A DNA stretch of 64,000 bases from an uncultured Fibrobacteraceae bacterium (GTDB lineage: Bacteria > Krumholzibacteriota > Krumholzibacteriia > LZORAL124-64-63). Numbering within the stretch: position 1 is the first letter of the stretch; each line of letters begins with the position of its first letter. A program made the position numbers and the translations under genes. The stretch lies in contig CAYTFE010000001.1 in NCBI GenBank assembly GCA_964437115.1, positions 169,429-233,428 of the forward strand, in the 5' to 3' direction. Of this stretch, positions 1 to 34,601 are shown piece by piece. The notes below the pieces were generated by a model. It worked only from the letters and a program-made list of their open reading frames with translations. It ran no database searches and had not been told where the DNA came from.

Positions 1-5
1 GCTGT

Positions 6-647
6 TTGCCACCTAATCGCGCTCTTGATTTAGAGAATCATCTGAATGAATGTGCTGACTGTGCAGAAGAGAGTGCTGAACAGTTTAAATTACAACAAAT
101 TTTGAATATACCCGGTAGAGAATTGCCTGATAACTTTGAATGGAAATTGAATCTCCAACTCAATAGAGCACTTTATAATCGTGAAGGTCATGAATGGATA
201 GAGGAACCGCAGCATCGACGTTGGTATAAATTATTTATTCCATATTTTGTCACAAGTTTTTCAGTGGCAGCATTAGTAGCGTTTGTTCTTGTTTCTGATG
301 TATTTCAGCAAAATGATGTGCCTGTATTTAATTCCAATAATGGTCAAAATCTGGCAGGAGTGACACCAGTTAGCTCCACTGCGGGCGATACCGACAGACT
401 AACTCTTGGAACCCCAACCAAATCATCCTTCTTCTCAAATAATAATAGAGTAGGGTCCACAACAGTTTCCAGTCCAATTGCGGATTATAAATGGAAACAG
501 AAGTCATGGTCTGGTAAGGAACTTGAGGATTTACGCACCATAACATCCTTGAGAAATCAAAATAAAATTCTTAGTGCTGCCCTAAAGCATGCCCAATTAG
601 AAAATGAACACTTAAAAGAATTGCTTCAAACACAGAAAATTGATTAG
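6..647 (+). CDS. Putative zinc-finger (zf-HC2) anti-sigma factor, single TM. The N-terminus probably continues beyond the window edge.
   Basis: HLNECADCAEE matches the H-x3-C-x2-C anti-sigma zinc motif. A central hydrophobic helix (YFVTSFSVAALVAFVLV) is followed by an extracytoplasmic tail. The ORF opens at nt 6 with no room for a promoter or SD. Confidence 0.5.
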   Translation: MPPNRALDLENHLNECADCAEESAEQFKLQQILNIPGRELPDNFEWKLNLQLNRALYNREGHEWIEEPQHRRWYKLFIPYFVTSFSVAALVAFVLVSDVFQQNDVPVFNSNNGQNLAGVTPVSSTAGDTDRLTLGTPTKSSFFSNNNRVGSTTVSSPIADYKWKQKSWSGKELEDLRTITSLRNQNKILSAALKHAQLENEHLKELLQTQKID

Positions 648-697
648 ATTAAGTAATCGGTTTCGATTTGTTTCTTAATCATTCTCTGGAGAGCGCA

Positions 698-1732
698 ATG
701 CGTCGTGTTTTAGTGCTTCAATTTTATTTGTTGTTATTATTTCTTTCAGGATGTAATAAACCTGATAGCGATTACATTATTTCTGCTGTTGGTTCCTACG
801 GGGACGTAGCAATTATTACATCCTCAGAACAATTACAACAGAGACTTATTACGGAATTTGATAGTATAAATAGTGAAGAAACATTTGTTCTAAAAAAAGA
901 AAAAACACTGCACTTCAGATACTTTCCTGCGAAACACTGGAAAAATGCCCGCAACTACCGAAATGTAATTATTGCTCTTGATTGGAGCGATGGTGGCAAG
1001 GTTCAGGGTTTGGTTGAGGATATGATTTCTGAAGCACGACTCAATAAATTGCTAAATGGTTCCGGTGGGTTGGTTACAATAAAGGATCCATGGTACAGAA
1101 ATCAATTTGCAATAGTTGTAGTTGCAAATTCGGGCTCATCGCTGAAAAGGCTGTTAAAAGACAAAAGTGAGATAATCTCCAGGGAGATTCACAAAAGTAA
1201 TTTAGAGCGCATGATGGTAGACAATAAAAAACGTGGTTTTCATAAAGAAGTTGTTGCCAATTATAAAAAACATTTAGGTCTCAGTATTGAATTCCCGCTG
1301 GATTATAGACAAAACCAAATTATGCCAGAAGGATATAAAGGTTTGGAATGGATAATTCCAGGTCCACCTACTCGAGGTATATCTTTGGGCTGGATTGAAA
1401 CTGACGATTGCAAACTTGCCTTGGAAAACAAAGAATTTCTAGCAGAAGCCAGATCGGAACTTGGCAAATATCTGCATTCAGAAACAATTGTAATGTCATC
1501 ATTAAAGTGGGGTGAAGAGAAATTAGCTGGTATCGATGCAGTAAGATTAACCGGGGCTTGGGTGAGTGATGAAGTTGGTGTTGGTGGTCCATTTAAATGT
1601 TATTTTGTTTCTGATCCAAACCATAAACAGATCATTTGTATAGATTTACTTGTCTATGCTCCTGATAAAGATAAAATGGATTACTTCAGAAAAATGAGAT
1701 CAGTCATTGAAACTCTTTCTTTCAGTAAATAG
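698..1732 (+). CDS. Lipoprotein of unknown function (DUF4837-like).
   Basis: The signal peptide MRRVLVLQFYLLLLFLSGC carries an LSGC lipobox. A GGAGAG SD lies 5 nt upstream of the ATG at 698. The 668 start listed in the ORF track lacks an SD. Family assignment is from recalled resemblance only. Confidence 0.55.
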   Translation: MRRVLVLQFYLLLLFLSGCNKPDSDYIISAVGSYGDVAIITSSEQLQQRLITEFDSINSEETFVLKKEKTLHFRYFPAKHWKNARNYRNVIIALDWSDGGKVQGLVEDMISEARLNKLLNGSGGLVTIKDPWYRNQFAIVVVANSGSSLKRLLKDKSEIISREIHKSNLERMMVDNKKRGFHKEVVANYKKHLGLSIEFPLDYRQNQIMPEGYKGLEWIIPGPPTRGISLGWIETDDCKLALENKEFLAEARSELGKYLHSETIVMSSLKWGEEKLAGIDAVRLTGAWVSDEVGVGGPFKCYFVSDPNHKQIICIDLLVYAPDKDKMDYFRKMRSVIETLSFSK

Positions 1733-1743
1733 GGGAGTCGGTC

Positions 1744-2427
1744 TTGAAAACGCTTACAAAAATTACATTTCTATTGCTATTGATATCAATTATCTCAACA
1801 GTTTCCTATGCGCAGGAAAGCTCATCAAGGTTTTCATGGGGAATTTCCATGGGGATGTCTGCAGGTGGGGAATTAACGCGTATTCGTGAAAATAGCACAA
1901 GACGTTGGATGCCACCTTCAAATGAACCATTTAATGCATATAGATTTGAATTGACATTGCATGAAGGAATGGCGGTTAGTTCATTTGGAGAATTTAAAGT
2001 TACTCCCAGAGATTGTTTCCGTTTGTCTGTATTCAATTCTAGTTATGCGGTTATTGCACTGGCTAGACAAACTGACAATGCTGTAGTCACCAAGTGGGAT
2101 GATGTTAATGTGACTGGATTCGGTTTTTCATATCGACGAGTTATCTTATCATCTTCATGGCGTCCCTACATTACGGCTGGTCCTGCTTATCTTATGATAG
2201 ATAGTATTGACCCAGAAATGGACCAAAGTATATTGGCAGCGACAATCGGTGTCGGGTTCGAATATGATATTGCTAGAAATGTTCTTCTGACTTTTGATTT
2301 GGATGACCGTATTGGCAGTTTAGATTTCGCGGCATATGAAAATCTAGCCAATGATTCCGCAATTATTGAGGAAAACAGCCCAAGCAATTTTTTTTCGTTT
2401 ATGGTTGGGATGACAATAGGACTATAG
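1744..2427 (+). CDS. Outer-membrane beta-barrel protein (OmpA-like/porin-family barrel).
   Basis: TTG start with an AGGGGAG SD. Signal peptide ends ...VSYAQ. Alternating amphipathic beta-strand pattern and no other TM helix. Confidence 0.5.
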   Translation: MKTLTKITFLLLLISIISTVSYAQESSSRFSWGISMGMSAGGELTRIRENSTRRWMPPSNEPFNAYRFELTLHEGMAVSSFGEFKVTPRDCFRLSVFNSSYAVIALARQTDNAVVTKWDDVNVTGFGFSYRRVILSSSWRPYITAGPAYLMIDSIDPEMDQSILAATIGVGFEYDIARNVLLTFDLDDRIGSLDFAAYENLANDSAIIEENSPSNFFSFMVGMTIGL

Positions 2428-2653
2428 CTCTAAATATAGTTCTTATAGTCAAGTGCAATGTTTTGCTTGTTGTATAAATAATAGAGTGCACAGCATCGTA
2501 ACACAGTGTTATAAATAGAGATATGGTTTATTATGCTTTTTACAATACTTGCTTAATATTTTTCAATTTGCTTAACCACCCTTTTACTGACATATTCAAC
2601 TAACTTGAAAGAAAACGTCTAAATGACTCACAATTCAGCATTAGGGGCTTCAG

Positions 2654-3478
2654 ATGGGTAATATTATAGCGGTAGTTAATCCTAAGGGTGGAAGTGGAAA
2701 GACAACAACTGCATTAAACTTGGCTGCAGGTTTAACAAGGTATAGCGATATCTCATCATCTTGTTTAATTATCGATATGGATCCTCACGGTTGTGCAACA
2801 TCTTCACTGCTTGGAAAGATGGATGGGGAAGTACCTAGCAGAACTCTTTTTGATGTGCTCAGAGGTGCTATGACTCCTCATGATGGAGTTACCAGTACAG
2901 TTTATGATGAGAATATAGATTTGCTCCCTTCATGTCCTGCATTGGAGAGTATTTCAAGGACACATAAAGTGGATCGCTTGAAAAAAGTTACCGATGCTCT
3001 TTCAACGTCATATGGTTGGATAATAATCGATACTCCTCCAAATTTGGGATTCTTAACTCTTAATGCTTTAGTTACTGCTGACTATGTTATTGTTCCTACA
3101 CAATGCACAGGTCTTGCAGTTTCTACTTTGCAACAGGTAGCTGACGCAATTGATAAAGTAAAAGAGCGTCAAAATGTCTGGTTACAGAACTTGGGTGTTT
3201 TGGTTACCATGAAAGATGGTCGAACTGACTTACCAGCAGACCTGCTTAAACAGATTAAAAAGATATTTCCAAGAAAATTATTTAAAACATTAATTACAAA
3301 TAACATTAAAATTGAGGAAGCTCCTTCAAACTTTAATAGCATTTATTCCTATGATTCAGGTTGTCTTGGTGCTTCCCTTTACCGGGATTGGGTAAAAGGA
3401 GAATTGCAAAGAAAACACAAGGCACTGGAGAAAAAGAAAAATGAGAAGATGGAAGAGTTGAATATAAGCCAGGTTTAG
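2654..3478 (+). CDS. ParA/Soj-family P-loop ATPase (orphan, no ParB nearby).
   Basis: Deviant Walker A KGGSGKTTTALNLAAGL, an IDMDPHG motif, and a Lys/Glu-rich C-terminal extension (KKKNEKMEEL). Confidence 0.8.
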   Translation: MGNIIAVVNPKGGSGKTTTALNLAAGLTRYSDISSSCLIIDMDPHGCATSSLLGKMDGEVPSRTLFDVLRGAMTPHDGVTSTVYDENIDLLPSCPALESISRTHKVDRLKKVTDALSTSYGWIIIDTPPNLGFLTLNALVTADYVIVPTQCTGLAVSTLQQVADAIDKVKERQNVWLQNLGVLVTMKDGRTDLPADLLKQIKKIFPRKLFKTLITNNIKIEEAPSNFNSIYSYDSGCLGASLYRDWVKGELQRKHKALEKKKNEKMEELNISQV

Positions 3479-4146
3479 CGGACAAATGGATTATGTTCCA
3501 TTTCTTCGCCAACTGAAGTTGAAGGACCGTGCCCCGGATGGAGTGCGGTCTTTTCATCTAATGTATAGAGTGCGGTGCGGATGCTTTTTTCAAGAGTAGG
3601 AAAGCTCCCGCCAGGCAGATCGGTTCTGCCAACAGAACGAGCAAAAATCAAATCCCCAACAATAACATTTTCAGGCAACTTGATTACAATATGACCGGGA
3701 CAGTGTCCAGGTGTATGTATCAGTTCGAAGCCGTGGTTGCCCAATTTCAGCTGTGAGTTTTCTCCGGAAAAATATTCAACTTCAGGATCTTCAGTTCTAG
3801 GGAAGCCATAAGTAGACTGAACTGACTGCATTGATTCAATAACATGTTTGCCATCTTCATGTGCAAGTAAAGGTAGATTCCAGTTCTTTTGAATTGCTGC
3901 AGTTGCGCCGATATGATCAAAGTGACCGTGGGTGCAGAGAATCGATTTCAATTCACATTTTGTAGCATCAATTGCCCGAAGCAGGACGTTAGGTTCCTCG
4001 CCTGGGTCAACTAAAATTGCTGAGTTGTTTTCTGGGGAATGTATTATCCAGGCGTTCATTTCAAGAGGGCCAACTGTAATACAATCAAGTTTCCAGCCCA
4101 GATATTCTGATATAGAAATTTTCATGTTTTCAGTTGGCCCTCTCAA
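3475..4146 (-). CDS. MBL-fold metallo-hydrolase (glyoxalase II-like).
   Basis: HGHFDHIG (HxHxDH) motif and downstream His/Asp ligands. Its stop overlaps the parA stop by 4 nt (convergent). Confidence 0.8.
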   Translation of the reverse strand: MRGPTENMKISISEYLGWKLDCITVGPLEMNAWIIHSPENNSAILVDPGEEPNVLLRAIDATKCELKSILCTHGHFDHIGATAAIQKNWNLPLLAHEDGKHVIESMQSVQSTYGFPRTEDPEVEYFSGENSQLKLGNHGFELIHTPGHCPGHIVIKLPENVIVGDLIFARSVGRTDLPGGSFPTLEKSIRTALYTLDEKTALHPGHGPSTSVGEEMEHNPFVR

Positions 4147-4165
4147 ATTAGAAACAAGTCATTCG

Positions 4166-5488
4166 CTACTTATCGTCGTCGTAATATTCACGACCTAAAT
4201 GAGTAATGAGTTCTTCGCCCATCATCCAACGCAGAGTATTCTTTAGCTTCTTCTGTTGAATGAAGAGGTCATGCTCTGGCTGAAGACCTTCAGGAGTAAC
4301 TGGACTCTTCAGGTAGAATGAAAGCCATTCTTGAATTCCACCAAGGCCGGCCCGTTTGGCAAGATCCAGGAATAGAGCAAGGTCTAGAACAATTGGAGCA
4401 GCAAGAATCGAATCTCTACAAAGGAAATCGATTTTAATCTGCATTGGCATATTCAACCAACCAAAGATGTCTATGTTGTCCCAACCCTCTTTATTGTCAC
4501 CACGAGGAGGATAGTAATTTATCCGAACCTTATGATAAAGATCGCCATAAAGGTCTGGATATAACTCAGGCTGCAGGATGTTGTCCAGAACGCTGAGTTT
4601 TGATTCTTCTTTGGTCTTGAATGATTCAGGATCATCTAGAACTTCGCCATCACGGTTACCTAGGATGTTAGTTGAGAACCAACCACTCATTCCCAGAAGT
4701 CTGGCTTTGAAACCAGGTGCAAGGATGGTCTTCATCAAAGTCTGGCCAGTTTTGAAATCTTTTCCCATAGTAGGAGAACCAGTTTGCTTGGACAATTCTT
4801 CAAGAGCAGGGAAGTCTGCGCTCAAGTTCGGAGCACCGTTTGCATAAGGCACACCCATCTTGATTGCTGCATATGCATAAATCATACTTGGAGCAATAGC
4901 AGGGTCATTGTTGCGCAAACCATCTTCAAAAGCTTCTATGGTTGCATGTACTGCACTTTTTTCCATGAAGATTTCTGTAGAACCACACCAGACCATAACT
5001 AATCTGTCACAGCCTTTTTCCTTTTTGAAGTTTTCCATGTCAGCCATGAGCTGTTCAGCAAGGTTCATTTTATTTGGACCTGATTTAACATGCGTACCTT
5101 CAAGCATTTTGACATAGTAGTTGTCAAAAACGGCAGGCATAGGTTTGATTTGCTCTAGCTCAGGTTTCAGTTCATCAAGAAGTTTCTCTTCAAGAACACC
5201 AGCATTCATTGCAGCGTCATAAACAGACTCTTCAAAAATATCCCAGCCACCAAACTCGATATCAGCAAGTTCTGTAATAGGGACAAAGTTCTTAATTAAT
5301 GGTTGGTTGTTGTCTGTTCTCTTTCCAAGACGAATGTGACCCATCTGGGTCAAGCTGCCAATTGGTAGACGAATTCCTTCTCGTACTGCAATTACACCAG
5401 CAATGAATGTTGTGGCAACTGCACCCATTCCTGGTGTCAGAATTCCCAGCTTACCTGTAGCCGGCTTGACATTCAATCCGTTAGACAT
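4166..5488 (-). CDS. myo-Inositol-3-phosphate synthase (MIPS, NAD-dependent).
   Basis: About 440 aa with an NAD Rossmann N-terminus (GILTPGMGAVATTFIAG) and conserved MIPS blocks. A GAGGAG SD precedes the start. Confidence 0.8.
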   Translation of the reverse strand: MSNGLNVKPATGKLGILTPGMGAVATTFIAGVIAVREGIRLPIGSLTQMGHIRLGKRTDNNQPLIKNFVPITELADIEFGGWDIFEESVYDAAMNAGVLEEKLLDELKPELEQIKPMPAVFDNYYVKMLEGTHVKSGPNKMNLAEQLMADMENFKKEKGCDRLVMVWCGSTEIFMEKSAVHATIEAFEDGLRNNDPAIAPSMIYAYAAIKMGVPYANGAPNLSADFPALEELSKQTGSPTMGKDFKTGQTLMKTILAPGFKARLLGMSGWFSTNILGNRDGEVLDDPESFKTKEESKLSVLDNILQPELYPDLYGDLYHKVRINYYPPRGDNKEGWDNIDIFGWLNMPMQIKIDFLCRDSILAAPIVLDLALFLDLAKRAGLGGIQEWLSFYLKSPVTPEGLQPEHDLFIQQKKLKNTLRWMMGEELITHLGREYYDDDK

Positions 5489-5592
5489 ATCTCGCTCCTC
5501 GATTTAAATCTTGATTCAACCAGAATTTGGCAAAATCAGCAGTTCAGAATCAAATAAAGTGATTCTGAGAAATTTGATAACAATAATGTTTC

Positions 5593-5617
5593 ATGCAGAA
5601 AATTACCGTTTCTGCAT
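5593..5617. promoter_or_regulatory. Perfect 9-bp inverted repeat ATGCAGAAA-N7-TTTCTGCAT in the 330-bp divergent intergenic region between the MIPS and DegT genes; candidate operator.
   Basis: Read directly from the sequence: catgcagaaaattaccgtttctgcat. Confidence 0.4.
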
Positions 5618-5816
5618 AAGAATGCAAGTGTAATTATTGGACTAAAGGAAAGATTAGTTTCTTAGTCAAGCATAAAATTGACTGCTAGTGTTCATGGATT
5701 AACTCAAGACGTAATAAAAATTGTTATTTATGCTAATTTTAACTAAAGTGGGTATTATCCATGACGATATATGTAAGGTGTTCCAGAAGATACCTAACTA
5801 AAACAGGAGTTCGCTC

Positions 5817-6902
5817 ATGTCAATAACAGTCCCATTTATGGATCTTAAAGCTCAGGTAGCACCACTGCGATCTGAAATCGATGCAGCCATCAAAGATGTA
5901 GTTGATAACACTGCCTTTATTCTTGGCCCACGGCTTGAAAAATTTGAAAAGAATTTTGCTGAGTACTGTTCCACAGATCATTGTGCAGGGGTAGATTCAG
6001 GCACACAGGCATTGCATCTAATATTAAGAGGGTTAGGTATTGGGGCAGGCGATGAGGTTATAACGGTACCTAATACGTTTATTGCCACAATTGAAGCAAT
6101 TGCCTATACAGGTGCAAAACCAGTTTTTGTTGATGTAGATCCTGACACGTGGCTAATGGATCCCACAAAGCTCGCTGATGCAATTACAGATAAAACTAAA
6201 GCTATTCTTCCTGTTCATCTCTTTGGACATCCAGTTCCTTTTGACGAGATTAAAGCTGCTGCAGGTGATATCCCAATTATCGAGGATGCTTGTCAGGCTC
6301 ACGGTGCAAGGTATAAGGGACAGAGAATCGGTTCTCTTGGGTATGCCGCTGCATTTAGTTTTTATCCAGGTAAAAACCTGGGTGCATTTGGAGATGGTGG
6401 AGCAGTAGTCTCAAATGACATGAAGCTGAAAGGATTTATCGACAGCGTTCGTCACCATGGACAAGGTGCAAAAAATATGCACGATAGTATTGGTCACACT
6501 TCGCGCCTCGATTCGTTGCAGGCGGTGGTTCTGGATATCAAGCTGAAGCAATTGGATAATTGGAGTGAAATGCGTCGTAACAACGCTGCATTATATAAAG
6601 CAAAGTTACAAGGTTCATACAGAATGCCGGAATTGGTTTCTGAAACTGAGGCTGTACACCACTTGTTCCCAATTCAGTGTGGAGACCCAGAAGGAACTAT
6701 TGCTATGTTGCGCGAGAATGGTGTTTTTTGTGGAAGGCATTATCCAGTTTCCTGCAATTTGCAACCTGCTCTTAAAGGCATAATTGATGACAATATCAGT
6801 TTCCCGGTTTCCGAAGAACTTTGTTCCGGGATTGTTTCTCTACCTATGTTTGCAGAATTAACTGAAGAAATGGTAGACAAGGTATGTAAACATCTGCTAT
6901 AA
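5817..6902 (+). CDS. DegT/DnrJ/EryC1/StsC-family PLP-dependent aminotransferase (sugar or cyclitol aminotransferase).
   Basis: Conserved catalytic Lys context SFYPGKNLGAFGDGGAV and a typical fold-type I N-terminus. An AGGAG SD precedes the start. Confidence 0.85.
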   Translation: MSITVPFMDLKAQVAPLRSEIDAAIKDVVDNTAFILGPRLEKFEKNFAEYCSTDHCAGVDSGTQALHLILRGLGIGAGDEVITVPNTFIATIEAIAYTGAKPVFVDVDPDTWLMDPTKLADAITDKTKAILPVHLFGHPVPFDEIKAAAGDIPIIEDACQAHGARYKGQRIGSLGYAAAFSFYPGKNLGAFGDGGAVVSNDMKLKGFIDSVRHHGQGAKNMHDSIGHTSRLDSLQAVVLDIKLKQLDNWSEMRRNNAALYKAKLQGSYRMPELVSETEAVHHLFPIQCGDPEGTIAMLRENGVFCGRHYPVSCNLQPALKGIIDDNISFPVSEELCSGIVSLPMFAELTEEMVDKVCKHLL

Positions 6903-7021
6903 TTATTCAAGTTACATTACTGAAGTGACTATCTAATGATAGTTGGAAAGAGAGCATATGAGCATAAGCTAACGCGTTTCCGTTGATTTACAACAACTCT
7001 GTATACAGAGGAGATTAGACA

Positions 7022-7744
7022 ATGAAGGAAGACGCGGTAGTTTATTCCACCGTTGCTAACAATGTAACTTCTGCTCAGCCGGCATTATATGTCGTTGCTG
7101 ACGCTTCAAGTATCCACAGTTTTCAAGGAAAATTTAAAAGAGCATTCGATGTTGTTTGTGCTTTAACGGCTATGATTTTGTTGTCGCCGTTTTTTGCTTT
7201 ACTCTCTTTTCTTGTAAAACAATCCAGTTCTGGTCCTATCCTTTTTACTCAGGAAAGAATAGGCAAGGACGGCAGGCCATTTAATTTCTATAAATTCAGA
7301 ACTATGATTCACAACAGTGATGATGCTATTCATAGACAGTTTGCTTCGATGTTTATTTCTGGTGGAATAGGAGATGACTGTAAAGACGACAGCTTTAAAA
7401 TTTCTGACGATCCTCGTGTTACTAAAATAGGGGCATGGTTGCGTAAAACCTCACTTGATGAGTTGCCTCAATTTTTTAACATTCTAAAGGGCGACATGTC
7501 TTTTGTTGGCCCCCGCCCGCCAATTAAATATGAAATAGAACAATATCAGCCTCGTCACCATGAGCGGCTTCGTGTTACTCCCGGACTTACAGGTCTATGG
7601 CAAGTAAGTGGCAGGAGCTCTGTCTCTTTTGAAGAAATGGTTCGGCTTGATATTTACTATATCAACAACTGGTCATTCATTGAGGATTTCAGGATAATCT
7701 TCAAAACAATTCCTGTAGTATTAAAGGGAACTGGTGGTTGTTGA
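7022..7744 (+). CDS. Small monotopic phosphoglycosyl transferase (bacterial sugar transferase, PglC/WbaP C-terminal type).
   Basis: One N-terminal hydrophobic helix. FYKFRTM, DELPQFFN...KGDMSFVGPRP and GLTGLWQVSGR motifs. Confidence 0.8.
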   Translation: MKEDAVVYSTVANNVTSAQPALYVVADASSIHSFQGKFKRAFDVVCALTAMILLSPFFALLSFLVKQSSSGPILFTQERIGKDGRPFNFYKFRTMIHNSDDAIHRQFASMFISGGIGDDCKDDSFKISDDPRVTKIGAWLRKTSLDELPQFFNILKGDMSFVGPRPPIKYEIEQYQPRHHERLRVTPGLTGLWQVSGRSSVSFEEMVRLDIYYINNWSFIEDFRIIFKTIPVVLKGTGGC

Positions 7745-7857
7745 CAACCAGACCGTAAAAGCCTAATTTCGGTCAATAAATTCAAGGTAACTAAAGTTGT
7801 TTCACTAATGAGCCGCTGAAAGGCGTGCCAAACGCTCGTAATGGGCAAGGGGATACC

Positions 7858-8880
7858 ATGTCAACAAAAATGGCTGCAATCGGTTGTGGATATTGGGGAC
7901 CTAACTTAATCCGTAACTTCAACTCTCTTCCAGAAGTTGAACTCACCACGATTTGCGACCTTGATGAAGATCGATGTAATCATATGTCGTCGCTTTATCC
8001 AGAAATTACTGTGACAGATGATTACATGTCTATTATCAACGATGATTCTATAGATGCAGTATCAGTTGCCACGCCAGTAACGACTCACTTCCCAATTGGC
8101 AAGGCTGTCCTTGAAGCAGGTAAACACCTATTTATTGAGAAACCGATGTGTGCCAATGCAGAAGAATCTCGTGAATTAATAAGAATTGCTGAGGAAAAGA
8201 ATCTTCAGATTATGGTAGGCCATATTTTCCTGTTTGTTCCTGCAGTCAGAAAAGTTAAAGCGCTTATTGAGTCAGGTGATTTGGGCGATATTCATTATGT
8301 TAATATTCGTCGACTTAACCTGGGTATTTTTCAAAAAGATGCAAATGTAGTTTGGGACTTGGCTCCTCACGACATAGCTATGCTCAATTATCTATTTGAT
8401 GAGGCTCCTTTAACTGTTAGTGCAACTGGTAAATGTTATGTTCAGAAAGATAAAGGCATTGAAGATGTAGCCTTTTTAACTCTGGAATATCCAAATAATA
8501 AAATCGTAAGCATTCATGTCAGCTGGCTTGACCCTGACAAAATCAGAGAGTGTACATTTGTAGGTAGTAAGCAAATGCTTGTTTACGATGATGTATCTAT
8601 GACTGAGAAACTTAAAATCTTTGATAAGGGTGTTGACATTATGCCTCATTATGATGATTACAGCGAGTTCCATCTTGCATATCGTCATGGAGATATAATT
8701 ATTCCAAAAATAGATCAGGCGGAGCCACTGAAAATTGAGTGTGCTCACTTTATTGATTGCATCAATGGTAAAGCAACTCCATTGAGTGATGGAACAATGG
8801 GCCTGCAGGTTGTAGAGGTCCTTGAAAAGGCGTGTATTTCAATTAATGAGGGTGGCAAACCTCAACAACTTGGTGGCTAG
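7858..8880 (+). CDS. Gfo/Idh/MocA-family NAD(P) oxidoreductase (sugar 3-dehydrogenase or inositol dehydrogenase type).
   Basis: AAIGCGYWG Rossmann motif and an EKP motif (FIEKPM). The ATG at 7858 has an AAGGGGA SD, whereas the 7825 start lacks one. Confidence 0.8.
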   Translation: MSTKMAAIGCGYWGPNLIRNFNSLPEVELTTICDLDEDRCNHMSSLYPEITVTDDYMSIINDDSIDAVSVATPVTTHFPIGKAVLEAGKHLFIEKPMCANAEESRELIRIAEEKNLQIMVGHIFLFVPAVRKVKALIESGDLGDIHYVNIRRLNLGIFQKDANVVWDLAPHDIAMLNYLFDEAPLTVSATGKCYVQKDKGIEDVAFLTLEYPNNKIVSIHVSWLDPDKIRECTFVGSKQMLVYDDVSMTEKLKIFDKGVDIMPHYDDYSEFHLAYRHGDIIIPKIDQAEPLKIECAHFIDCINGKATPLSDGTMGLQVVEVLEKACISINEGGKPQQLGG

Positions 8881-8967
8881 AATTATGTAAATATTTGTTG
8901 CAGCAAAGATTTAGTTTGACACTGGAGTGAAGGATTATATCATTACAGTTCGCAAACAAACTGCGAT

Positions 8968-9043
<76 letters not shown>

Positions 9044-9049
9044 TTTAGA

Positions 9050-9083
9050 AGAGGAGGCTATATTGTCCTCCTCTTTTTTATTT
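9050..9083 (+). terminator. Rho-independent terminator after tRNA-Gly.
   Basis: agaggagg-ctatattgt-cctcctct followed by a ttttttattt tract. Confidence 0.6.
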
Positions 9084-9133
9084 CTGAATCTTGACTTTAG
9101 TATGCTGATGCTTCATTCTTTAGAATCTGTCAA

Positions 9134-9209
9134 GGCGGCATAGCCAAGTGGTAAGGCGACGGTCTGCAAAATCGTTATTTCCCCAGTTCGAGTCTGGGTG
9201 CCGCCTCCA
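9134..9209 (+). tRNA. tRNA-Cys (GCA)
   Basis: Acceptor ggcggca/tgccgcc, anticodon loop ctGCAaa, T-arm gttcgagtc, CCA encoded. Confidence 0.8.
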
Positions 9210-9213
9210 GTTC

Positions 9214-9244
9214 AAACACCGGCATCGTCGGTGTTTTGTTTTAT
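9214..9244 (+). terminator. Rho-independent terminator after tRNA-Cys.
   Basis: aaacaccg-gcatcgt-cggtgttt followed by a tgttttat tract. Confidence 0.5.
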
Positions 9245-9291
9245 GACAAATGTTGACTTTTGACAACTTCTGAAGCAAGATTCTTCTGTGT

Positions 9292-9379
9292 GCCGGGGTG
9301 GCGAAATTGGTAGACGCAAGGGACTTAAAATCCCTCGATACGTTGTATCGTGCCGGTTCAAGTCCGGCCCTCGGCACCA
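9292..9379 (+). tRNA. tRNA-Leu (TAA), class II with a long variable arm.
   Basis: Acceptor gccgggg/cctcggc (one G·U pair), anticodon stem-loop aggga-ctTAAaa-tccct, long variable arm, CCA encoded. Confidence 0.85.
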
Positions 9380-9409
9380 GAAACTTTAGTTTGTTGAAAG
9401 GAGTAGCAT

Positions 9410-10555
9410 TTGCGAATCGCTTTTCTGTCAATCGGCAGACATATTCACACCGAGAGATGGATACAGTGGTTTGCACAAAGAGGGCACGAATGTCACCTCC
9501 TCACGGTTCAGCCTGGCGATATTGATGGTGTGAAAGTACATGACATCCGCTCAATCGCCCGTCCCAAGCCTCTTCATTATGCAATTTCACTTGTAAAAGT
9601 TAAATCTGCTCTGAAAAAGATTAACCCGGATATTCTGAATACTCACTTTTTAACTGGTTACGGATATTGGGGACATTTTTCAGGAATGCACCCGAATGTG
9701 CTAACTGTTTGGGGCGATGATGTCTATGTAACCCCATATGAAAATAAATTAAAAAGAAAACTAGCAGAAGCTGCTATGAAGTCATGTGATGTATTGACCG
9801 GTGACTCTGTTGATATACTCCAGCAGTCTGTTAGAGATCTGGATGCAAATCCAGATAGGGCATATAGGGTTTTATGGGGTGTTGATTTTTCAGTATTCAA
9901 ACCGATGGATACTTCAAGCTGGCGCAAGGAGCTTGGTTTCGCAGAAAATGATATCATCTACTTTTCGCCTCGCAGTTTTACACAGCCTTATTACAATATT
10001 GATATAGTTATCAAAGCAGCTCAAATTGTTAAATCAACTGAACCACGAGCTCGATTTTTATTTGCTGGCTATGAAGGAGATCCTGCGCCTTTCTGGGAGA
10101 TGGCAACTGAGGCAGGTATCAATGATGTATCAAAGTTCATGGGGCGGATTCCGCACTCAGATTTTGCCAAAGTACTAGCAGGGAGTGATGTGTTTATCTC
10201 AGTCCCTTCAGTCGATGCCACTGCAGTAAGCCTGCTTGAGGCAATGTCATGTTCATCTGCAATTATTGTATCAGACTTGCCTTCCTCAGTGGAATGGGTT
10301 GAAGATGGCGTTTCTGCAAAAGTTGTACCTACTGAAAATGTGGAGTTACTTGCAAGGGCCATGCTTGAATATGCCAACGACTCTGACTCTCGGACAATAT
10401 TTGGTGCAAAAGCAAGGGAGTATGCTCACAAAGTTGCCGGGTTCGATGCTAACATGGAATATGTGGATAGAATATTTAAGTCACTTGTTGAAGATGATGA
10501 GTGCTGGCCAGAAGAAATTTTATTGTCGAATTGCAGGTCACAGGATGTCGATTAA
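9410..10555 (+). CDS. Glycosyltransferase family 1 (GT4-like, retaining).
   Basis: C-terminal EX7E-type motif (SLLEAMSCSSAIIVSD) and a GT-B two-domain layout. It begins about 30 nt after tRNA-Leu. Confidence 0.75.
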   Translation: MRIAFLSIGRHIHTERWIQWFAQRGHECHLLTVQPGDIDGVKVHDIRSIARPKPLHYAISLVKVKSALKKINPDILNTHFLTGYGYWGHFSGMHPNVLTVWGDDVYVTPYENKLKRKLAEAAMKSCDVLTGDSVDILQQSVRDLDANPDRAYRVLWGVDFSVFKPMDTSSWRKELGFAENDIIYFSPRSFTQPYYNIDIVIKAAQIVKSTEPRARFLFAGYEGDPAPFWEMATEAGINDVSKFMGRIPHSDFAKVLAGSDVFISVPSVDATAVSLLEAMSCSSAIIVSDLPSSVEWVEDGVSAKVVPTENVELLARAMLEYANDSDSRTIFGAKAREYAHKVAGFDANMEYVDRIFKSLVEDDECWPEEILLSNCRSQDVD

Positions 10556-11486
10556 ACTTTCAGTCATAATTCCTACATATAATAAAGCAGATTTGTTGCA
10601 ACAAACTCTAGATGCATTATCGAAGCAGAATTTAGATGTCTCCCAATGGCAACTTGTAGTGGTTAATGATGGCTCAACCGATAATACCGATGAAATCCTG
10701 AAAACATTTTCAGATATCTGGAAAGGTAATATTGAGCTTATAAAGCCAGAAGCTAACTTGGGCAGGGCCAAAGCTCGTAACCTTGGTGCAGAATCAGCCA
10801 GCGGTGATTACTTATTGTTTTTAGATGATGATATCGTGGCTCCAGTAAATCTTTTATCCAGCCATATGTTAAAACTTGATGCAGTGGGTGGGTTTGGGGT
10901 CATTGGAACTATTGTCACTTCAGCTGACTTGGTCGATGCTCCACATTTTTATTACATCGATTCCAGAGGTGTTGCAAAAATCAAGGCAGGCTTTGTTCCA
11001 GGTAAATATCTTGTGACCCAGAATTGTTCTATGCCACGTAAATTGTTTATAAAGGTCGGGGGATTTGATGAGAAATTCACGGCCTATGGTTTTGAAGATA
11101 TGGATCTTGGTATCAAACTTTGTAATGCCGGCCTGAAGTTTAGACTGCTAGATGGCCCTGTACCAATCCACGTTCACCATCATACCTTGAGTCAATACCT
11201 TGAGAAAAAACGGGAGTGTGGCGCTGAATCATTGGCACTTATTTCAGAAAAGCACCCTGAAAGTGTTGTCGATATGAGACTTAATTGGGTTCTTGAGAGA
11301 AGGCCTGGTTTTCTGATTAAATATTTCAGGTATTTGTCTACTTCGTTTTTTTATAAATTTGCTGTCAGTTTGGCAATTAAGTGGCCTTCCAACTCTGTGA
11401 ATAAGCCAATTTTCGAAAACATGTATTATAAACTCATGGACTTTTTAGTCATGGCTTCTTTTTATCGTGGATATCTGACATACTGA
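10545..11486 (+). CDS. Glycosyltransferase family 2 (GT-A).
   Basis: SVIIPTYNKADLL, VVNDGSTDNT and a DDD motif. Start assigned to the in-frame ATG at 10545. The 10236 start in the ORF track is a spurious out-of-frame extension across the GT1 3' end. Confidence 0.75.
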   Translation: MSIKLSVIIPTYNKADLLQQTLDALSKQNLDVSQWQLVVVNDGSTDNTDEILKTFSDIWKGNIELIKPEANLGRAKARNLGAESASGDYLLFLDDDIVAPVNLLSSHMLKLDAVGGFGVIGTIVTSADLVDAPHFYYIDSRGVAKIKAGFVPGKYLVTQNCSMPRKLFIKVGGFDEKFTAYGFEDMDLGIKLCNAGLKFRLLDGPVPIHVHHHTLSQYLEKKRECGAESLALISEKHPESVVDMRLNWVLERRPGFLIKYFRYLSTSFFYKFAVSLAIKWPSNSVNKPIFENMYYKLMDFLVMASFYRGYLTY

Positions 11487-11670
11487 CAAATGTATGACAG
11501 CAGCCTGACGTAATGACGCTATATTTCTTCTCAAGCTAATACTGACAAATTGTCTTTCAGAGTAGATGTTGGCTAACATGCGTCATATCAACATATTACT
11601 TTCTTTCATTATTTAAGGCACGGTACTTGTATTACATATATCAGCAATTCATGTGTAATTGACACTTTAA

Positions 11671-13584
<1,914 letters not shown>

Positions 13585-13597
13585 TAAGTAGAAGTGT

Positions 13598-13626
13598 AGG
13601 GCCGGCTTAGCCGGCCCTTTTATTTT
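13598..13626 (+). terminator. Rho-independent terminator after dnaK.
   Basis: gggccggc-ttag-ccggccc followed by ttttatttt. Confidence 0.7.
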
Positions 13627-13661
13627 ATCAAAATAAAAGTTGAAAAAATAGTAAAGTATAC

Positions 13662-13690
13662 TTGACAACATAATGCCGGAATGATATTGT
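13662..13690 (+). promoter_or_regulatory. Possible sigma-70-type promoter (TTGACA-N17-TATTGT) for the sigma factor gene.
   Basis: Motif read in the sequence. Unverified, and the lineage may use a different promoter consensus. Confidence 0.25.
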
Positions 13691-13840
13691 CCAATATAGA
13701 ACGAAATTATATTTATTTTCGTGAGACGTTTGGCAAAATAATCTAAGTAGTGTAGAGTGAGATAAAAAAGGATTGGGAAGCCATTCTATCATTTGCACTA
13801 TCCTGGTCCTTCGCACAGTCTATTTTCGGGAGGTGCAAAA

Positions 13841-14698
13841 ATGTTTGAAGTAGAATTAAGTTTGGATCGTCGAGAAAGCGGTTGCCTTCAAAATTACCTG
13901 CAGTCAATTGGTCGCTACGACCTGATTACCCGTGAGAAAGAGTATGAATTAGCCAAGCTCATAAGAAGTGGCGATAGAGATGCGCTTGATGCACTTGTTA
14001 ATGCAAATCTTCGTTTTGTTGTAACTGTTGCCAAGAAATTTTTAAATCAAGGGTTAAGCTACATGGATCTGATTGCCGAAGGTAATTTAGGTCTCATAAC
14101 TGCAGCAGGTCGCTTCGATGAGACTAGAGAGTTTCGTTTCATTTCATACGCAGTCTGGTGGATTAGACAATCTATCCAGAAGGCAATTGCTGAACAAACC
14201 AATACAGTTAGATTGCCAGTTAATCGAACTCAGCAAGTTCAGAAGATTAAGAAAATCACCTGGGAATTTGAACAGACCCATTATCGACTTCCTTCTGATA
14301 CAGAACTTTCTGAGCGAGTAAATATCCCATTAGTTAAAATGGCTTTGATAAAAGCAGCAAGCCGGCCACTTGCAAGTTTAGATGAGAATGTTTTTGATTC
14401 TGAAGATATGACACTTTCAGAAATATTGGCTGATGAGTCACTGCCAAATCCAGAGGATGGTTATCTCCAGGGAGAAGTAGTGTCATTAATTGGATCAGCT
14501 CTTGATATTCTGACACCAAGAGAAAAAAAAGTTGTTTCCAGGTATTATGGGCTTGAAGATCTTGAATCTGTATCACTTGAAACTATTGGTCAGGATATGA
14601 ATTTGTCTCGAGAAAGAATTCGACAAGTAAGAAACCAGGCTTTGCTTAAAATCAGAAAACATGTAGCTTCTATGGAAGCTGTTAAGTTTGCTTCATAA
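13841..14698 (+). CDS. RNA polymerase sigma-70 family factor, RpoD-like but short (about 285 aa, no region 1.1); likely the primary sigma of an FCB-type organism.
   Basis: Region 2 (DLIAEGNLGLITAAGRFD, YAVWWIRQSI), region 3, and a region 4 HTH (TIGQDMNLSRERIRQVRNQAL). The ATG at 13841 has a GGGAGG SD, whereas the 13793 start lacks one. Confidence 0.8.
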   Translation: MFEVELSLDRRESGCLQNYLQSIGRYDLITREKEYELAKLIRSGDRDALDALVNANLRFVVTVAKKFLNQGLSYMDLIAEGNLGLITAAGRFDETREFRFISYAVWWIRQSIQKAIAEQTNTVRLPVNRTQQVQKIKKITWEFEQTHYRLPSDTELSERVNIPLVKMALIKAASRPLASLDENVFDSEDMTLSEILADESLPNPEDGYLQGEVVSLIGSALDILTPREKKVVSRYYGLEDLESVSLETIGQDMNLSRERIRQVRNQALLKIRKHVASMEAVKFAS

Positions 14699-14750
14699 TC
14701 TATTTGACAGATTGCGTAAGCCAGAATAATTTACGCATTACTGATTGAGT

Positions 14751-14827
14751 GGGAGATTAGCTCAGCTGGCTAGAGTACTTGCTCGACACGCAAGGGGTCA
14801 CTGGTTCGAGTCCAGTATCTCCCACCA
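14751..14827 (+). tRNA. tRNA-Val (GAC)
   Basis: Acceptor gggagat/atctccc, anticodon stem-loop cttgc-tcGACac-gcaag, T-arm ggttcgagtcc, CCA encoded. Confidence 0.85.
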
Positions 14828-14905
14828 TTAACTACTGTAAAGAGGGGAGTGTCATAGGATTCTCCTTTTTTTGTTATTAGACTTGATGGGAAGTACGGGG
14901 TCATA

Positions 14906-16825
14906 ATGTCTCAACTAACGCTAACTCTTCCAGATGGTAATTCAATCAATGTTAATAGCGGAGCATCTTTTAGCGATGCCGTAGGCGTTATAGGAGCTGG
15001 CCTGCTAAGAAACTCGCTTGCTGTTACCTTTAATGACAAGCATTATTCCCTTTCCGATTTAGTCCCCTCTGATGGTTCTCTATCTGTTATAACAAAATCC
15101 AGTGAAGATGGATATGTCACGCTACGACATTCAGCTGCACACTTGTTGGCCTGGGCTGTACAGGAATTGTATCCAGGGACAAAATTTGCTTTTGGTCCAG
15201 CTATTGAGAATGGCTTTTACTATGACTTCGATAGAAAAGAACCATTTACTGAAGAAGATCTGATAAAAATTGAAAACAAAATGGTGGAATTGTCAAAAAG
15301 TAAGGAAAGTCTTAATCGGCGCGAAATCACTAAATCGGATGCTGAAGAACTCTTTGCTGATCAACCATATAAACTTGAGCAAATTTCCGAATTGGGTGAC
15401 GAAGCACTTACCGTATATCAAGTCGGCCAATTTCAAGATTTATGTGAAGGTCCACATGTCCCTGATACGTCACCTATAAAAGCAATCAAACTGCTGAGTG
15501 TTGCTGGCGCTTATTGGCGAGGCAACAGTGATAACAAAATGCTCCAACGTATTTATGGTACTGCTTTTTTCAAAAAGAAAGAGCTGGAAAACCATTTGCG
15601 TATGTTGGAAGAAGCGAAAAAGCGTGATCACAGGAAGCTTGGCCGTGAACTGGATCTTTATGGAATAATGGATGAAGCAGGTCCAGGTCTTTCTTTCTGG
15701 TTCCCACGTGGAGATATACTTCGAGACCAAATTATTAACTTCTGGAAAAACATCCATCGCCGGGATGGCTACGTAACAGTTACTACACCACATATTTCCA
15801 ATGCTGAGCTTTGGGAAACGTCTGGTCATATGGAGTTCTATAAAGACGACATGTATGTCTTTGAGCAAGATAATAAGCCCTATGTTGTCAAGCCTATGAA
15901 CTGTCCAGGGCATATCCTGATTTACAAACGCCAGAAGCGTGGGTATCGAAGTCTTCCAGTTCGTTATGCAGAGCTGGGAACTGTCTATCGAGCTGAACTT
16001 AAGGGCACATTGCATGGGCTGATGAGAGTTCGCGGCTTTACGCAGGACGATGCTCATATTTTTTGTACTCCAGATCAACTGGAAACTGAAGTCTCCAAGG
16101 TGCTGGAGCTTACTAAAGAAATTCTAAGCACTTTTGGTTTTACTGAATTCAAAGTTGAATTGTCAGTCAGAGATCCTAAGAACCCTGAAAAATACGCCGG
16201 CAGTGATGAAGAATGGGAGATGGCAGAAAAGTCGTTAGTCAACGCTATTAAACAGCATGGTTTTGATTATACTAGAGAAGAAGGCGAAGCTGTATTCTAT
16301 GGTCCAAAGATTGATGTGAAACTTATTGATGCTCTGGGCAGGCAATGGCAGGCGAGTACTGTTCAGTTTGATTTCAATCTGCCTCGCAGATTTGATGTTA
16401 CTTACACGGATCAAGATGGCAAAGATAAGTATGTATATATGGTTCATAGGGCCATAATGGGTTCATTGGAGCGTTTTATTGGAATTATAACTGAACACTT
16501 TGGTGGTAATTTCCCTATTTGGTTGGCTCCTGAACAATGTCGAGTTATGTCCGTCAGTCATGCTCAGAGTGATTATGCTTTGAAAGTTGCCGATGAACTT
16601 CGTCGTGCTGGTGTCAGGGTAGAGTCTGATGTTAGAGACGAAAAAATTGGATTTAAAATTAGAGAAGCTGAAGAAATGAAGATTCCTTATATGCTGATTG
16701 TTGGAGGCAGGGAACAGGAAACTCATTCTGTTGCGGTTAGATCACGTAAACACGGGGATTTAGGACAGATTGAGGTAATTGATTTTGCGACAAGAATTCT
16801 TGACGAATCGGCGGAAATGAAGTAA
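14906..16825 (+). CDS. thrS: Threonyl-tRNA synthetase.
   Basis: N-terminal TGS domain, class II aaRS motifs (HRA..GSLERF, FRGREMTH-like) and a C-terminal anticodon-binding domain. Confidence 0.95.
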   Translation: MSQLTLTLPDGNSINVNSGASFSDAVGVIGAGLLRNSLAVTFNDKHYSLSDLVPSDGSLSVITKSSEDGYVTLRHSAAHLLAWAVQELYPGTKFAFGPAIENGFYYDFDRKEPFTEEDLIKIENKMVELSKSKESLNRREITKSDAEELFADQPYKLEQISELGDEALTVYQVGQFQDLCEGPHVPDTSPIKAIKLLSVAGAYWRGNSDNKMLQRIYGTAFFKKKELENHLRMLEEAKKRDHRKLGRELDLYGIMDEAGPGLSFWFPRGDILRDQIINFWKNIHRRDGYVTVTTPHISNAELWETSGHMEFYKDDMYVFEQDNKPYVVKPMNCPGHILIYKRQKRGYRSLPVRYAELGTVYRAELKGTLHGLMRVRGFTQDDAHIFCTPDQLETEVSKVLELTKEILSTFGFTEFKVELSVRDPKNPEKYAGSDEEWEMAEKSLVNAIKQHGFDYTREEGEAVFYGPKIDVKLIDALGRQWQASTVQFDFNLPRRFDVTYTDQDGKDKYVYMVHRAIMGSLERFIGIITEHFGGNFPIWLAPEQCRVMSVSHAQSDYALKVADELRRAGVRVESDVRDEKIGFKIREAEEMKIPYMLIVGGREQETHSVAVRSRKHGDLGQIEVIDFATRILDESAEMK

Positions 16826-22371: not shown

Positions 22372-22558
22372 TTCAAGATTCCCTACCATGTTTGTGATGT
22401 GCCGCTTGGTTTGAGCCAACGTTATTCGTGAGGATGGTCACGTTTTAAGTCGGCTGTCATGCCCCAAAGGGGGAAGGCAAAAGGTTAAACAGGCTATCCG
22501 CCTTTGGAGCAATTGGTTCAGTTGCTTCCGGTCACACGGCTTGGCGGGGAATCTTTAA
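22372..22558 (+). ncRNA. Structured RNA, candidate 6S RNA (ssrS-like), between zapA and rny.
   Basis: A long imperfect helix: AAGATTCCC (22375-22383) pairs with GGGAATCTT (22547-22555). Internal pairs include UGUGA/UCACA and CCAAAGG/CCUUUGG. The predicted RNA is about 185 nt, has locally higher GC, and encodes no ORF. In E. coli ssrS lies immediately downstream of zapA. Confidence 0.35.
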
Positions 22559-30671: not shown

Positions 30672-30845
30672 ATGAGAAATTTAATCCTGATAATATTAGC
30701 ATGGGTTGTCATAAGGCGACTAATGCGTTTGATAGATTCATTTTTACAAAATCGGAAAAATGTTAAGCAAAAAGATGCTAGTTATGAACATCTAACCGAC
30801 CAGGAAATTAGTGATGCTGATTACGAAGAAATCAAGAAAAAATAG
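30672..30845 (+). CDS. Possible small membrane protein (57 aa, DUF4834-like: N-terminal TM, C-terminal ...[10 protein letters not shown]).
   Basis: Below the 60-aa ORF-track cutoff, so translated by hand. No convincing SD. Overlaps the next ORF by about 35 nt in another frame. Confidence 0.25.
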
Positions 30846-32561: not shown

Positions 32562-32579
32562 TAGTTAGTAGGGGGAACA

Positions 32580-33521: not shown

Positions 33522-33537
33522 GAGACTGGGGCTTCTG

Positions 33538-34482: not shown

Positions 34483-34601
34483 ATATTAAAATAATTGTGC
34501 AGTATGGTGATATTTGTTGTATAGTATGTATGAGATTGATTGGGAGGTTAATCTATTAAATTATATCGACTGTGATGTAGTACAGGCAAAAGGGGGCAGA
34601 A

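Follow-up and report, generated by a model that had tools for sequence, protein, structure and literature searches.

A 64,000-nucleotide stretch of contig CAYTFE010000001.1, referred to here as the window, comes from an uncultured bacterium. It carries a gene for myo-inositol-phosphate synthase (MIPS) back to back with genes for a DegT-family aminotransferase, a phosphoglycosyl transferase (PGT) and a Gfo/Idh/MocA oxidoreductase. We call the latter three genes the cassette. Does the synthase feed the cassette, or do the two only share a border? An earlier note on this DNA, made from the sequence alone, offered two answers. In the conservative one, the cassette makes an amino sugar of the UDP-GlcNAc3N type, the 3-amino derivative of UDP-N-acetylglucosamine (UDP-GlcNAc), for a glycan. 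In the other, myo-inositol is converted through scyllo-inosose to scyllo-inosamine, which then becomes part of a glycan or lipid. We conclude that the locus probably consists of two functionally separate units placed back to back: a plus-strand unit that starts a lipid-linked glycan with a 3-amino sugar and a minus-strand unit that supplies inositol 3-phosphate.

According to this explanation, the Gfo/Idh/MocA enzyme would oxidise C3 of a UDP-N-acetylhexosamine (UDP-HexNAc), most likely UDP-GlcNAc, with NAD+. The DegT enzyme would transaminate the resulting 3-keto sugar to UDP-GlcNAc3N, and the PGT would put the sugar 1-phosphate on undecaprenyl phosphate. Two glycosyltransferases of families GT4 and GT2, encoded past a group of tRNA genes, may lengthen the chain. 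On the opposite strand, the synthase would make inositol 3-phosphate for uses encoded elsewhere, which in related phyla are inositol phospholipids, and a putative housekeeping hydrolase resembling glyoxalase II follows it in the same unit. UDP-GlcNAc is favoured because the cassette has neither dTDP-sugar genes nor a 3,4-ketoisomerase and because the best-scoring family of the oxidoreductase acts on UDP-GlcNAc. We infer the substrates, the C3 regiochemistry of the oxidation and the destination of the glycan from family and gene context; family memberships, context statistics and synteny were observed directly.

The decisive evidence against an inosamine pathway is the gene context of the cassette outside the window's own lineage. 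A metagenome scan with an alignment of 17 oxidoreductase sequences yielded 79 out-of-lineage loci (L093-L171; 632 kb in total, GC 0.33-0.68), whose oxidoreductases are 48-59% identical to that of the window. For each neighbour, only loci with room to show it were counted. At 47 of 52 loci, the oxidoreductase was immediately preceded by a PGT orthologue. A hexapeptide (LbH) acetyltransferase of about 172 residues lay directly downstream in 45 of 58, and an orthologue of the window's aminotransferase (44-58% identity) was within 3 kb in 25 of 49. The orthologues are thus paired with the acetyltransferase and the aminotransferase as expected of a UDP-GlcNAc 3-dehydrogenase; the window itself has the aminotransferase only. 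The window's own order of aminotransferase, PGT and oxidoreductase recurs at two loci (L094 and L137) with no synthase beside it. The synthase was found at none of the 28 loci with at least 3.5 kb upstream, and neither it nor a phosphatidylinositol-phosphate synthase nor the metallo-beta-lactamase (MBL)-fold hydrolase was found anywhere in the 79 loci. With the synthase at 0 of 79 loci, the oxidoreductase does not show the co-occurrence with inositol genes, beyond shared ancestry, that would be expected of an IolG. One sequence cluster holds 56 of the 79 loci; the remaining 11 clusters show the same associations, with the PGT in 9, the acetyltransferase in 8 and the aminotransferase in 5. The nearest solved relatives of the cassette acetyltransferase are FdtD/WxcM (4mzu), 7s43, WlbB (3mqg) and QdtC, all sugar 3-N-acetyltransferases. 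Genes for an RfaH/UpxY-like antiterminator, a FemAB-family PEP-CTERM-associated protein and a Wzz/GumC-like protein are also often nearby, and the out-of-lineage cassettes sit in exopolysaccharide-type loci.

To place the aminotransferase, we compared it with solved structures. Its best PDB scores, all in full-length alignments, were 325 bits for 7b0d, 305 for DesV (2oga), 291 for QdtB (3frk) and 253 for WbpE. DesV, QdtB and WbpE are established nucleotide-sugar C3-aminotransferases. The C4 enzymes perosamine synthase and ArnB scored about 150-160 bits. The 2-deoxy-scyllo-inosose aminotransferases of BtrR/RbmB type (2c7t, 5w70 and 5w71) scored 129-139 bits in partial alignments, and by this comparison with solved structures, of which StsC has none, the enzyme falls outside the StsC/BtrR-type aminocyclitol aminotransferases. 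The lysine that would bind pyridoxal phosphate (PLP), K186 in FSFYPGK, lines up with its counterpart in 7b0d, DesV, QdtB and WbpE. With a DegT fold, this lysine and scores closer to C3 than to C4 or aminocyclitol enzymes, the protein groups with the nucleotide-sugar C3-aminotransferases and is predicted to be one of them.

The best curated family for the oxidoreductase was the archaeal UDP-GlcNAc 3-dehydrogenase NF040723 (195 bits, E 2e-57, whole model covered). Enzymes of this family act on UDP-GlcNAc itself and are coupled to a DegT aminotransferase. The Methanococcus dehydrogenase and its aminotransferase and acetyltransferase partners are presumably MMP0352, MMP0351 and MMP0350. The window's gene differs in being bacterial and fused in context to a PGT, and its score lies below the equivalog cut-off of 450 bits. 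Because this cut-off is missed, we describe the oxidoreductase by likeness and not as a member of NF040723. With the IolG model TIGR04380 it scored 110 bits where the cut-off is 355, and the alignment stopped at residue 234, which leaves it outside that family too. GnnA (7bvj) scored 67-78 bits at about 21% identity, and WlbA 62-67 bits by profile; with the single sequence and the 17-sequence profile, GnnA, inositol dehydrogenases, WlbA and others all fell at 60-100 bits. Foldseek with the AlphaFold model (pLDDT 85) gave E values of about 1e-24 for GnnA, inositol dehydrogenases and others alike, with a TM-score on the target of 0.90 for GnnA. Placement of the enzyme by solved structures was therefore abandoned: GnnA, inositol dehydrogenases, glucose-fructose oxidoreductase and 1,5-anhydrofructose reductase scored alike and gave no discrimination.

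We also aligned 17 lineage and 69 non-lineage oxidoreductases. Conserved in both groups were 94 positions, and only 3 were group-specific (G92/A, M186/I and L284/Y). E105-K106-P107 and D178-x3-H182 were invariant in all 86 proteins; these motifs occur across the superfamily and do not discriminate. Nothing in the alignment suggests a shift of specificity in the synthase-adjacent oxidoreductase. We assign this enzyme from its gene context and from the archaeal UDP-GlcNAc 3-dehydrogenase model, by which it is predicted to be a UDP-HexNAc 3-dehydrogenase, or at least to work like one.

The PGT scored 296.6 bits with TIGR03025 (cut-off 295.55), 193 bits with the WbaP catalytic domain and 130 bits with PglC. 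It has the D146-E147 dyad and the PRP motif (G-P-R-P at 163-166) and belongs to the monotopic PGTs. It is predicted to be the initiating transferase that moves a sugar 1-phosphate onto polyprenyl phosphate. The GT4 protein is 60-70% identical across the lineage; its solved relatives (BshA, MshA, PimA, PimB' and WaaG) scored 33-49 bits, a generic GT4 match. The GT2 protein is EpsD-like at 157 bits, below the cut-off. The grouping of the aminotransferase and the cassettes at 79 loci support the conservative UDP-GlcNAc3N-type reading of the earlier note. Among the results that would refute inosamine, the note had listed tight clustering of both enzymes with 3-amino-sugar enzymes. The aminotransferase goes with the C3-aminotransferases; the oxidoreductase forms no tight cluster with GnnA or WbpB of bacteria.

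The synthase matched PDB entry 7NWR with 566 bits (E 7e-169, residues 6-427); Heaver et al. 2022 (PMC9246714) give this entry as BT_1526 of Bacteroides thetaiotaomicron. Both of its Pfam domains, PF07994 and PF01658, score above gathering, and with the full-length match to a solved enzyme they make it a synthase of the BT_1526 type. Downstream on the same strand, the MBL hydrolase has the zinc motif H73-x-H75-x-D77-H78. Among solved structures it comes closest to 7ev5, 2zwr and the hydroxyacylglutathione hydrolases 2xf4 and 7l0b (114-135 bits). It is of the YcbL/GloC (glyoxalase II-like) type, with no mark of an inositol-phosphate phosphatase, and its pairing with the synthase is kept solely inside the lineage.

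To see what company the synthase keeps elsewhere, we scanned GTDB. The scan gave at least 80 synthase loci from many phyla; among the matches listed, the synthases are 68-81% identical to that of the window, mostly 68-74% in other phyla, and these loci served as an out-group. The commonest partners at the 80 listed loci were a CDP-alcohol phosphatidyltransferase (14 loci, tblastn) and a PgpA-like protein (7 loci), seen in Bacteroidota, KSB1, Calditrichota, Gemmatimonadota and Zhuqueibacterota. By phmmer, which was more sensitive, L006 and L023 were the only listed loci with glycan genes beside the synthase. L006 was the only one of the 80 syntenic with the window, and it has no aminotransferase. 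The window's synthase is a close homologue of BT_1526, which belongs to the cluster BT_1522-BT_1526 for inositol lipids in Bacteroides (Heaver et al. 2022, PMC9246714). At loci of Bacteroidota, KSB1, Calditrichota and Gemmatimonadota, orthologous synthases adjoin a phosphatidyltransferase and a PgpA-like phosphatase, the inositol-phospholipid genes known from Bacteroides. Unlike these, the 64-kb window contains no detectable CDP-alcohol phosphatidyltransferase (best E 0.2) or PgpA-like protein (best E 4.1) and so does not qualify as an inositol-phospholipid cluster; neither partner was found within 10 kb in the lineage relatives. The missing phosphatidyltransferase says little, because the same holds in 66 of the 80 listed loci.

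Why, then, does the synthase stand next to the cassette? Protein searches showed that homologues of the synthase (at least 77% identity) and of the oxidoreductase (at least 61%) share contigs, and we inspected eight contigs of this lineage, L006 and L086-L092. All eight share the order FabF, RNase III, TPR, sigma, DUF4837, ParA and MBL up to the synthase, which points towards the MBL gene. It continues on the other side with the aminotransferase (not in all), PGT, oxidoreductase, a first GT4 gene (GT4a, not in all), tRNAs, a second GT4 gene (GT4b), GT2, DnaK, RpoD and ThrRS. Synteny thus extends over more than 20 kb and includes housekeeping genes; positions 1-16825 of the window belong to it. 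GC within the lineage ranges from 0.40 to 0.70 and DUF4837 identity is 32-44%; the wide GC range and DUF4837 identities down to 32% show that the lineage is deep. Because the surrounding housekeeping order is equally conserved, the adjacency of synthase and cassette cannot be taken as a pathway signal. It probably reflects gene order passed down within one deep uncultured lineage and no shared pathway. The aminotransferase is present in the window and in L086-L088, L091 and L092, and the relatives that do not have the gene (L006, L089 and L090) showed no pseudogene remnants of it. At 61% identity or more, about 40 clusters of aminotransferase proteins were found, and more than 120 each of oxidoreductase and synthase. 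Identity across the lineage is 60-73% for PGT, oxidoreductase and GT4b, which makes them more conserved than a typical O-antigen locus.

Several observations weigh against two separate units. The adjacency of the synthase to PGT and oxidoreductase persists across genomes of 40-70% GC. With no aminotransferase in L006, L089 and L090, the presumed partner of the oxidoreductase is not always nearby, and no 3-N-acetyltransferase was found beside the cassette in the lineage or anywhere in the 64-kb window. L023, from the Krumholzibacteriota, has synthase, Wzx-like, DegT and PGT genes packed in an operon-like manner. The oxidoreductase reaches 195 bits where the NF040723 cut-off asks for 450, and neither its sequence nor its fold brings it nearer to bacterial GnnA than to inositol dehydrogenases. 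The top solved match of the aminotransferase, 7b0d, bears the name "Glutamine--scyllo-inositol transaminase". A literature search for 7b0d found no paper behind this name, and we gave the name no weight.

Two other explanations keep sugar chemistry in the cassette and change what becomes of it. The same conversion of UDP-GlcNAc to UDP-GlcNAc3N could serve lipid A with a GlcN3N backbone, as with GnnA and GnnB, instead of an undecaprenyl-linked glycan. GnnA and GnnB need no 3-N-acetyltransferase, and the lack of a detectable one beside the pair in the lineage or in the window would fit; in the structural comparison, GnnA is also the target with the best coverage (TM-score on it 0.90). A lipid A with GlcN3N, together with gnnA and gnnB, has reportedly been found in Capnocytophaga canimorsus of the Bacteroidota. 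However, the low identity of the oxidoreductase to GnnA, with a score no better than that of IolG, speaks against this route. So does the PGT, which is a near-invariant upstream neighbour inside and outside the lineage and useless to lipid A synthesis. No lpx gene is adjacent, and the out-of-lineage cassettes lie in loci of the exopolysaccharide type. We regard a lipid A destination as unlikely. Alternatively, the oxidoreductase of this lineage might work without the aminotransferase on the sugar of the PGT, for example by 3-oxidation and epimerisation or as a ketoreductase, and the aminotransferase would be an addition in a sub-branch. The three relatives that keep PGT and oxidoreductase without it, its far fewer protein clusters and the undetected acetyltransferase are consistent with this. 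Yet the conserved positions of the oxidoreductase are nearly identical to those of orthologues encoded beside a 3-N-acetyltransferase and a 3-aminotransferase. Moreover, half of the out-of-lineage loci have no aminotransferase nearby but keep the N-acetyltransferase, which requires an amine; a partner encoded elsewhere would therefore be common. An oxidoreductase acting by itself seems equally unlikely.

The remaining explanations give the synthase a part. If its inositol were oxidised to scyllo-inosose by the Gfo/Idh/MocA enzyme and transaminated to scyllo-inosamine by the DegT enzyme, for a glycan or lipid, divergent adjacency kept across a deep lineage would fit. Gfo/Idh/MocA includes inositol dehydrogenases as close to the window's enzyme as GnnA is by sequence and fold; 7b0d carries its inositol-transaminase name, of untraceable basis; and no phosphatidylinositol-phosphate synthase was found in the window. 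This suggestion of the earlier note did not withstand comparison, and most of the results by which the note would have it refuted were obtained. The widespread cassette does without a synthase in 79 of 79 loci, where it carries a sugar 3-N-acetyltransferase, and in other phyla the genes that accompany the inositol-phosphate synthase are those for phosphatidylinositol-phosphate synthase and a PgpA-like phosphatase. The aminotransferase resembles sugar C3 enzymes far more than aminocyclitol enzymes and is missing in several lineage members, and the oxidoreductase shows neither a shift of specificity nor an adequate IolG score. No inositol monophosphatase or other aminocyclitol gene lies nearby, and the MBL protein is glyoxalase II-like. 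As for the adjacency, the neighbourhood is indeed conserved across a deep lineage, as the note had asked, but as part of a block of more than 20 kb with housekeeping genes from which it cannot be separated; a synthase with no adjacent phosphatidylinositol-phosphate synthase is the norm among the listed loci. We consider the inosamine pathway highly improbable. A functional link could also exist with no inosamine, if the neighbouring PGT and glycosyltransferases coupled inositol or inositol phosphate to some conserved glycoconjugate of the envelope, or glycosylated it. Lineage-wide adjacency, the identity of PGT, oxidoreductase and GT4, unusual for variable O-antigen loci, the tight one-strand run in L023 and the presence of MshA, PimA and PimB' among the weak GT4 matches could be read this way. 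These GT4 scores, however, follow from the choice of GT4 structures available in the PDB. L023 is one of 79 listed non-syntenic loci, the cassette functions without a synthase in many lineages, and the neighbouring housekeeping genes are equally syntenic. We give this link a slim chance. Taken more broadly, we allow a small probability that the PGT and glycosyltransferase machinery of the lineage uses the synthase product for an envelope glycoconjugate with inositol, inositol phosphate or inosamine, because of the lineage-wide adjacency, the absent 3-N-acetyltransferase, the L023 run, the patchy aminotransferase and the 60-73% identity. Such a product would be a new class of bacterial inositol glycoconjugate.

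The favoured explanation, a 3-amino-sugar cassette beside an unrelated inositol supply, has parallels in systems already described. In Pseudomonas aeruginosa, WbpB/WbpE/WbpD make UDP-GlcNAc3NAcA, as do WlbA/WlbC/WlbB in Bordetella, by the same trio logic of Gfo/Idh/MocA 3-dehydrogenase, DegT C3-aminotransferase and LbH 3-N-acetyltransferase. WbpE resembles the window's aminotransferase, and WlbB is among the best solved matches of the acetyltransferase in orthologous cassettes. In contrast to these systems, whose substrate is a uronic acid, the window has no detectable acetyltransferase, and its WecC/TviB-like 6-dehydrogenase lies 22 kb off, outside the cassette. The oxidoreductase is distant from WlbA, and WbpB was not among the listed matches. 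GnnA/GnnB, which make UDP-GlcNAc3N for lipid A, share the predicted chemistry, the fold of GnnA (7BVJ) and a route that needs no N-acetyltransferase; they differ in sequence, in which the window's enzyme is no nearer to GnnA than to inositol dehydrogenases, and its constant neighbour, the PGT, suggests a polyprenyl-linked glycan instead. The aminocyclitol enzymes of StrI/StsC and BtrR type belong to the same superfamilies, Gfo/Idh/MocA and DegT, but the aminotransferase scores differ (129-139 against 253-325 bits) and no other aminocyclitol gene is present. The chemistry therefore matches known 3-amino-sugar systems, and the lineage is poorly known. If this explanation holds, an uncultured marine lineage joins the many bacteria that would start a lipid-linked glycan with a 3-amino HexNAc, and conserved gene order can by itself put a suggestive neighbour, here an inositol synthase, next to a pathway. 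For annotation, PGT, Gfo/Idh/MocA oxidoreductase, LbH acetyltransferase and DegT aminotransferase can be treated as a recurrent cassette.

Source databases call the cassette oxidoreductase just "predicted dehydrogenase". The recurrent unit of soil, peat and sediment comprises an RfaH/UpxY-like protein, PGT, oxidoreductase, LbH 3-N-acetyltransferase, DegT aminotransferase and a FemAB-family (PEP-CTERM-associated) protein.

The genes of the locus are listed in the table. Every gene that the earlier note had named was found where it had been placed, with agreement of the open reading frame (ORF) listing, ARAGORN for tRNAs, and Pfam and NCBIfam scans of the window.

Table. Features of the synthase and cassette locus, in window coordinates.
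Feature	Position	Strand	Evidence and remarks
MBL-fold hydrolase	3475-4146	-	PF00753, E 7e-24; gene callers start at 4125
MIPS, 440 aa	4166-5488	-	PF07994, E 1.5e-99 (334 bits); PF01658, E 7e-32 (110 bits)
Spacer between the divergent synthase and aminotransferase genes, 328 bp	5489-5816		AT-rich, GC 0.32
DegT-family PLP-dependent aminotransferase	5817-6902	+	PF01041, E 7e-104, 348 bits
Small monotopic PGT, 240 aa	7022-7744	+	PF02397, E 7.5e-70
Gfo/Idh/MocA oxidoreductase	7825-8880	+	PF01408, PF22725, PF02894; start possibly 7858
tRNA-Gly(GCC), tRNA-Cys(GCA), tRNA-Leu(TAA)	8968-9379	+	ARAGORN, Rfam
Retaining glycosyltransferase, Pfam Glycos_transf_1, CAZy GT4	9410-10555	+	PF00534, PF13477
Family 2 glycosyltransferase (GT2), 313 aa	~10545-11486	+	PF00535, E 1.7e-29; start overlaps the GT4 stop

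Between the cassette and the two glycosyltransferases stands the tRNA triplet. The locus is flanked by a ParA-like gene on one side and by genes for DnaK, RpoD, tRNA-Val, ThrRS, IF3 and PheRS on the other. The mechanical GT2 ORF, which starts with TTG at 10236, is 309 nt too long and begins inside the GT4 gene; all gene calls agree on the start given in the table, the protein has the same length on all contigs, and the Pfam match begins at residue 105 of the mechanical ORF. An identical synthase was present on 24 independent metagenome contigs (JGI, ENA and Logan samples), with the same neighbours on all five shown, so the arrangement is real and no assembly artefact. Promoters are presumed to lie in the spacer between the divergent genes, where promoter-like matches were no commoner than in shuffled sequence and an Rfam search matched no family.

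The relatives also differ from the window in small ways. An extra GT4 gene follows the oxidoreductase in L086-L091 and is not in the window. In L086 (1220-5163) and L087 (1257-5192), a block of MarR, 4Fe-4S, NrfD and cytochrome c3 genes, likewise not in the window, lies between tRNA-Gly and tRNA-Cys. These insertions mark the tRNA cluster as a variable spot. NCBI labels of the syntenic relatives conflict: "bacterium", Krumholzibacteriia, Gemmatimonadales and Fibrobacteraceae all occur.

L023 is the metagenome-assembled genome contig CAVSGG010000010.1 (10001-17593). Its synthase run lies on one strand with gaps of 10 nt or overlaps. The Wzx-like gene is polytopic with a GC3 of 0.83, and genes for a Wzy_C protein and a PglF-like dehydratase converge on the run. 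A hexapeptide transferase and a second DegT gene are nearby, and this is the sole such case among the 79 listed non-syntenic GTDB loci. In four Gemmatimonadota loci (L028, L035, L053 and L075), the region about 4.4-5.2 kb upstream of the synthase holds a Gfo/Idh/MocA paralogue that is only distantly related to the window's oxidoreductase (25-28% identity); in L053 a phosphatidyltransferase is also beside the synthase.

Elsewhere in the window, a second glycan block (31269-35342, plus strand) encodes the WecC/TviB-like NDP-sugar 6-dehydrogenase, a TviC-like UDP-GlcNAcA 4-epimerase, a Wza-like exporter and a second PGT of the Bac_transf family, and is followed by a sigma-54 response regulator and LptE. 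This block could supply a HexNAc uronic acid, the substrate of WbpB-type enzymes. An acyltransferase of the Lip_A_acyltrans family (43061-43945, minus strand) has as its sole NCBIfam match at E 1e-20 or better "phosphatidylinositol mannoside acyltransferase", at 74 bits with a cut-off of 209. This match may hint at inositol-lipid chemistry, or the enzyme may just be of the LpxL type. After it come a PpgS-like polyprenyl-phosphate GT2 (42376-43068) and SurE. Four ORFs in the window have no Pfam match: 6-647 (plus, 213 aa), 30811-31197 (plus, 128 aa), 39282-39650 (plus, 122 aa) and 51605-53104 (minus, 499 aa), the last of which sits between MutS and MutL. The gene for 6S (SsrS) RNA was found at 22377-22554 on the plus strand (73.6 bits, gathering score 46.4), between PheRS-beta and RNase Y.

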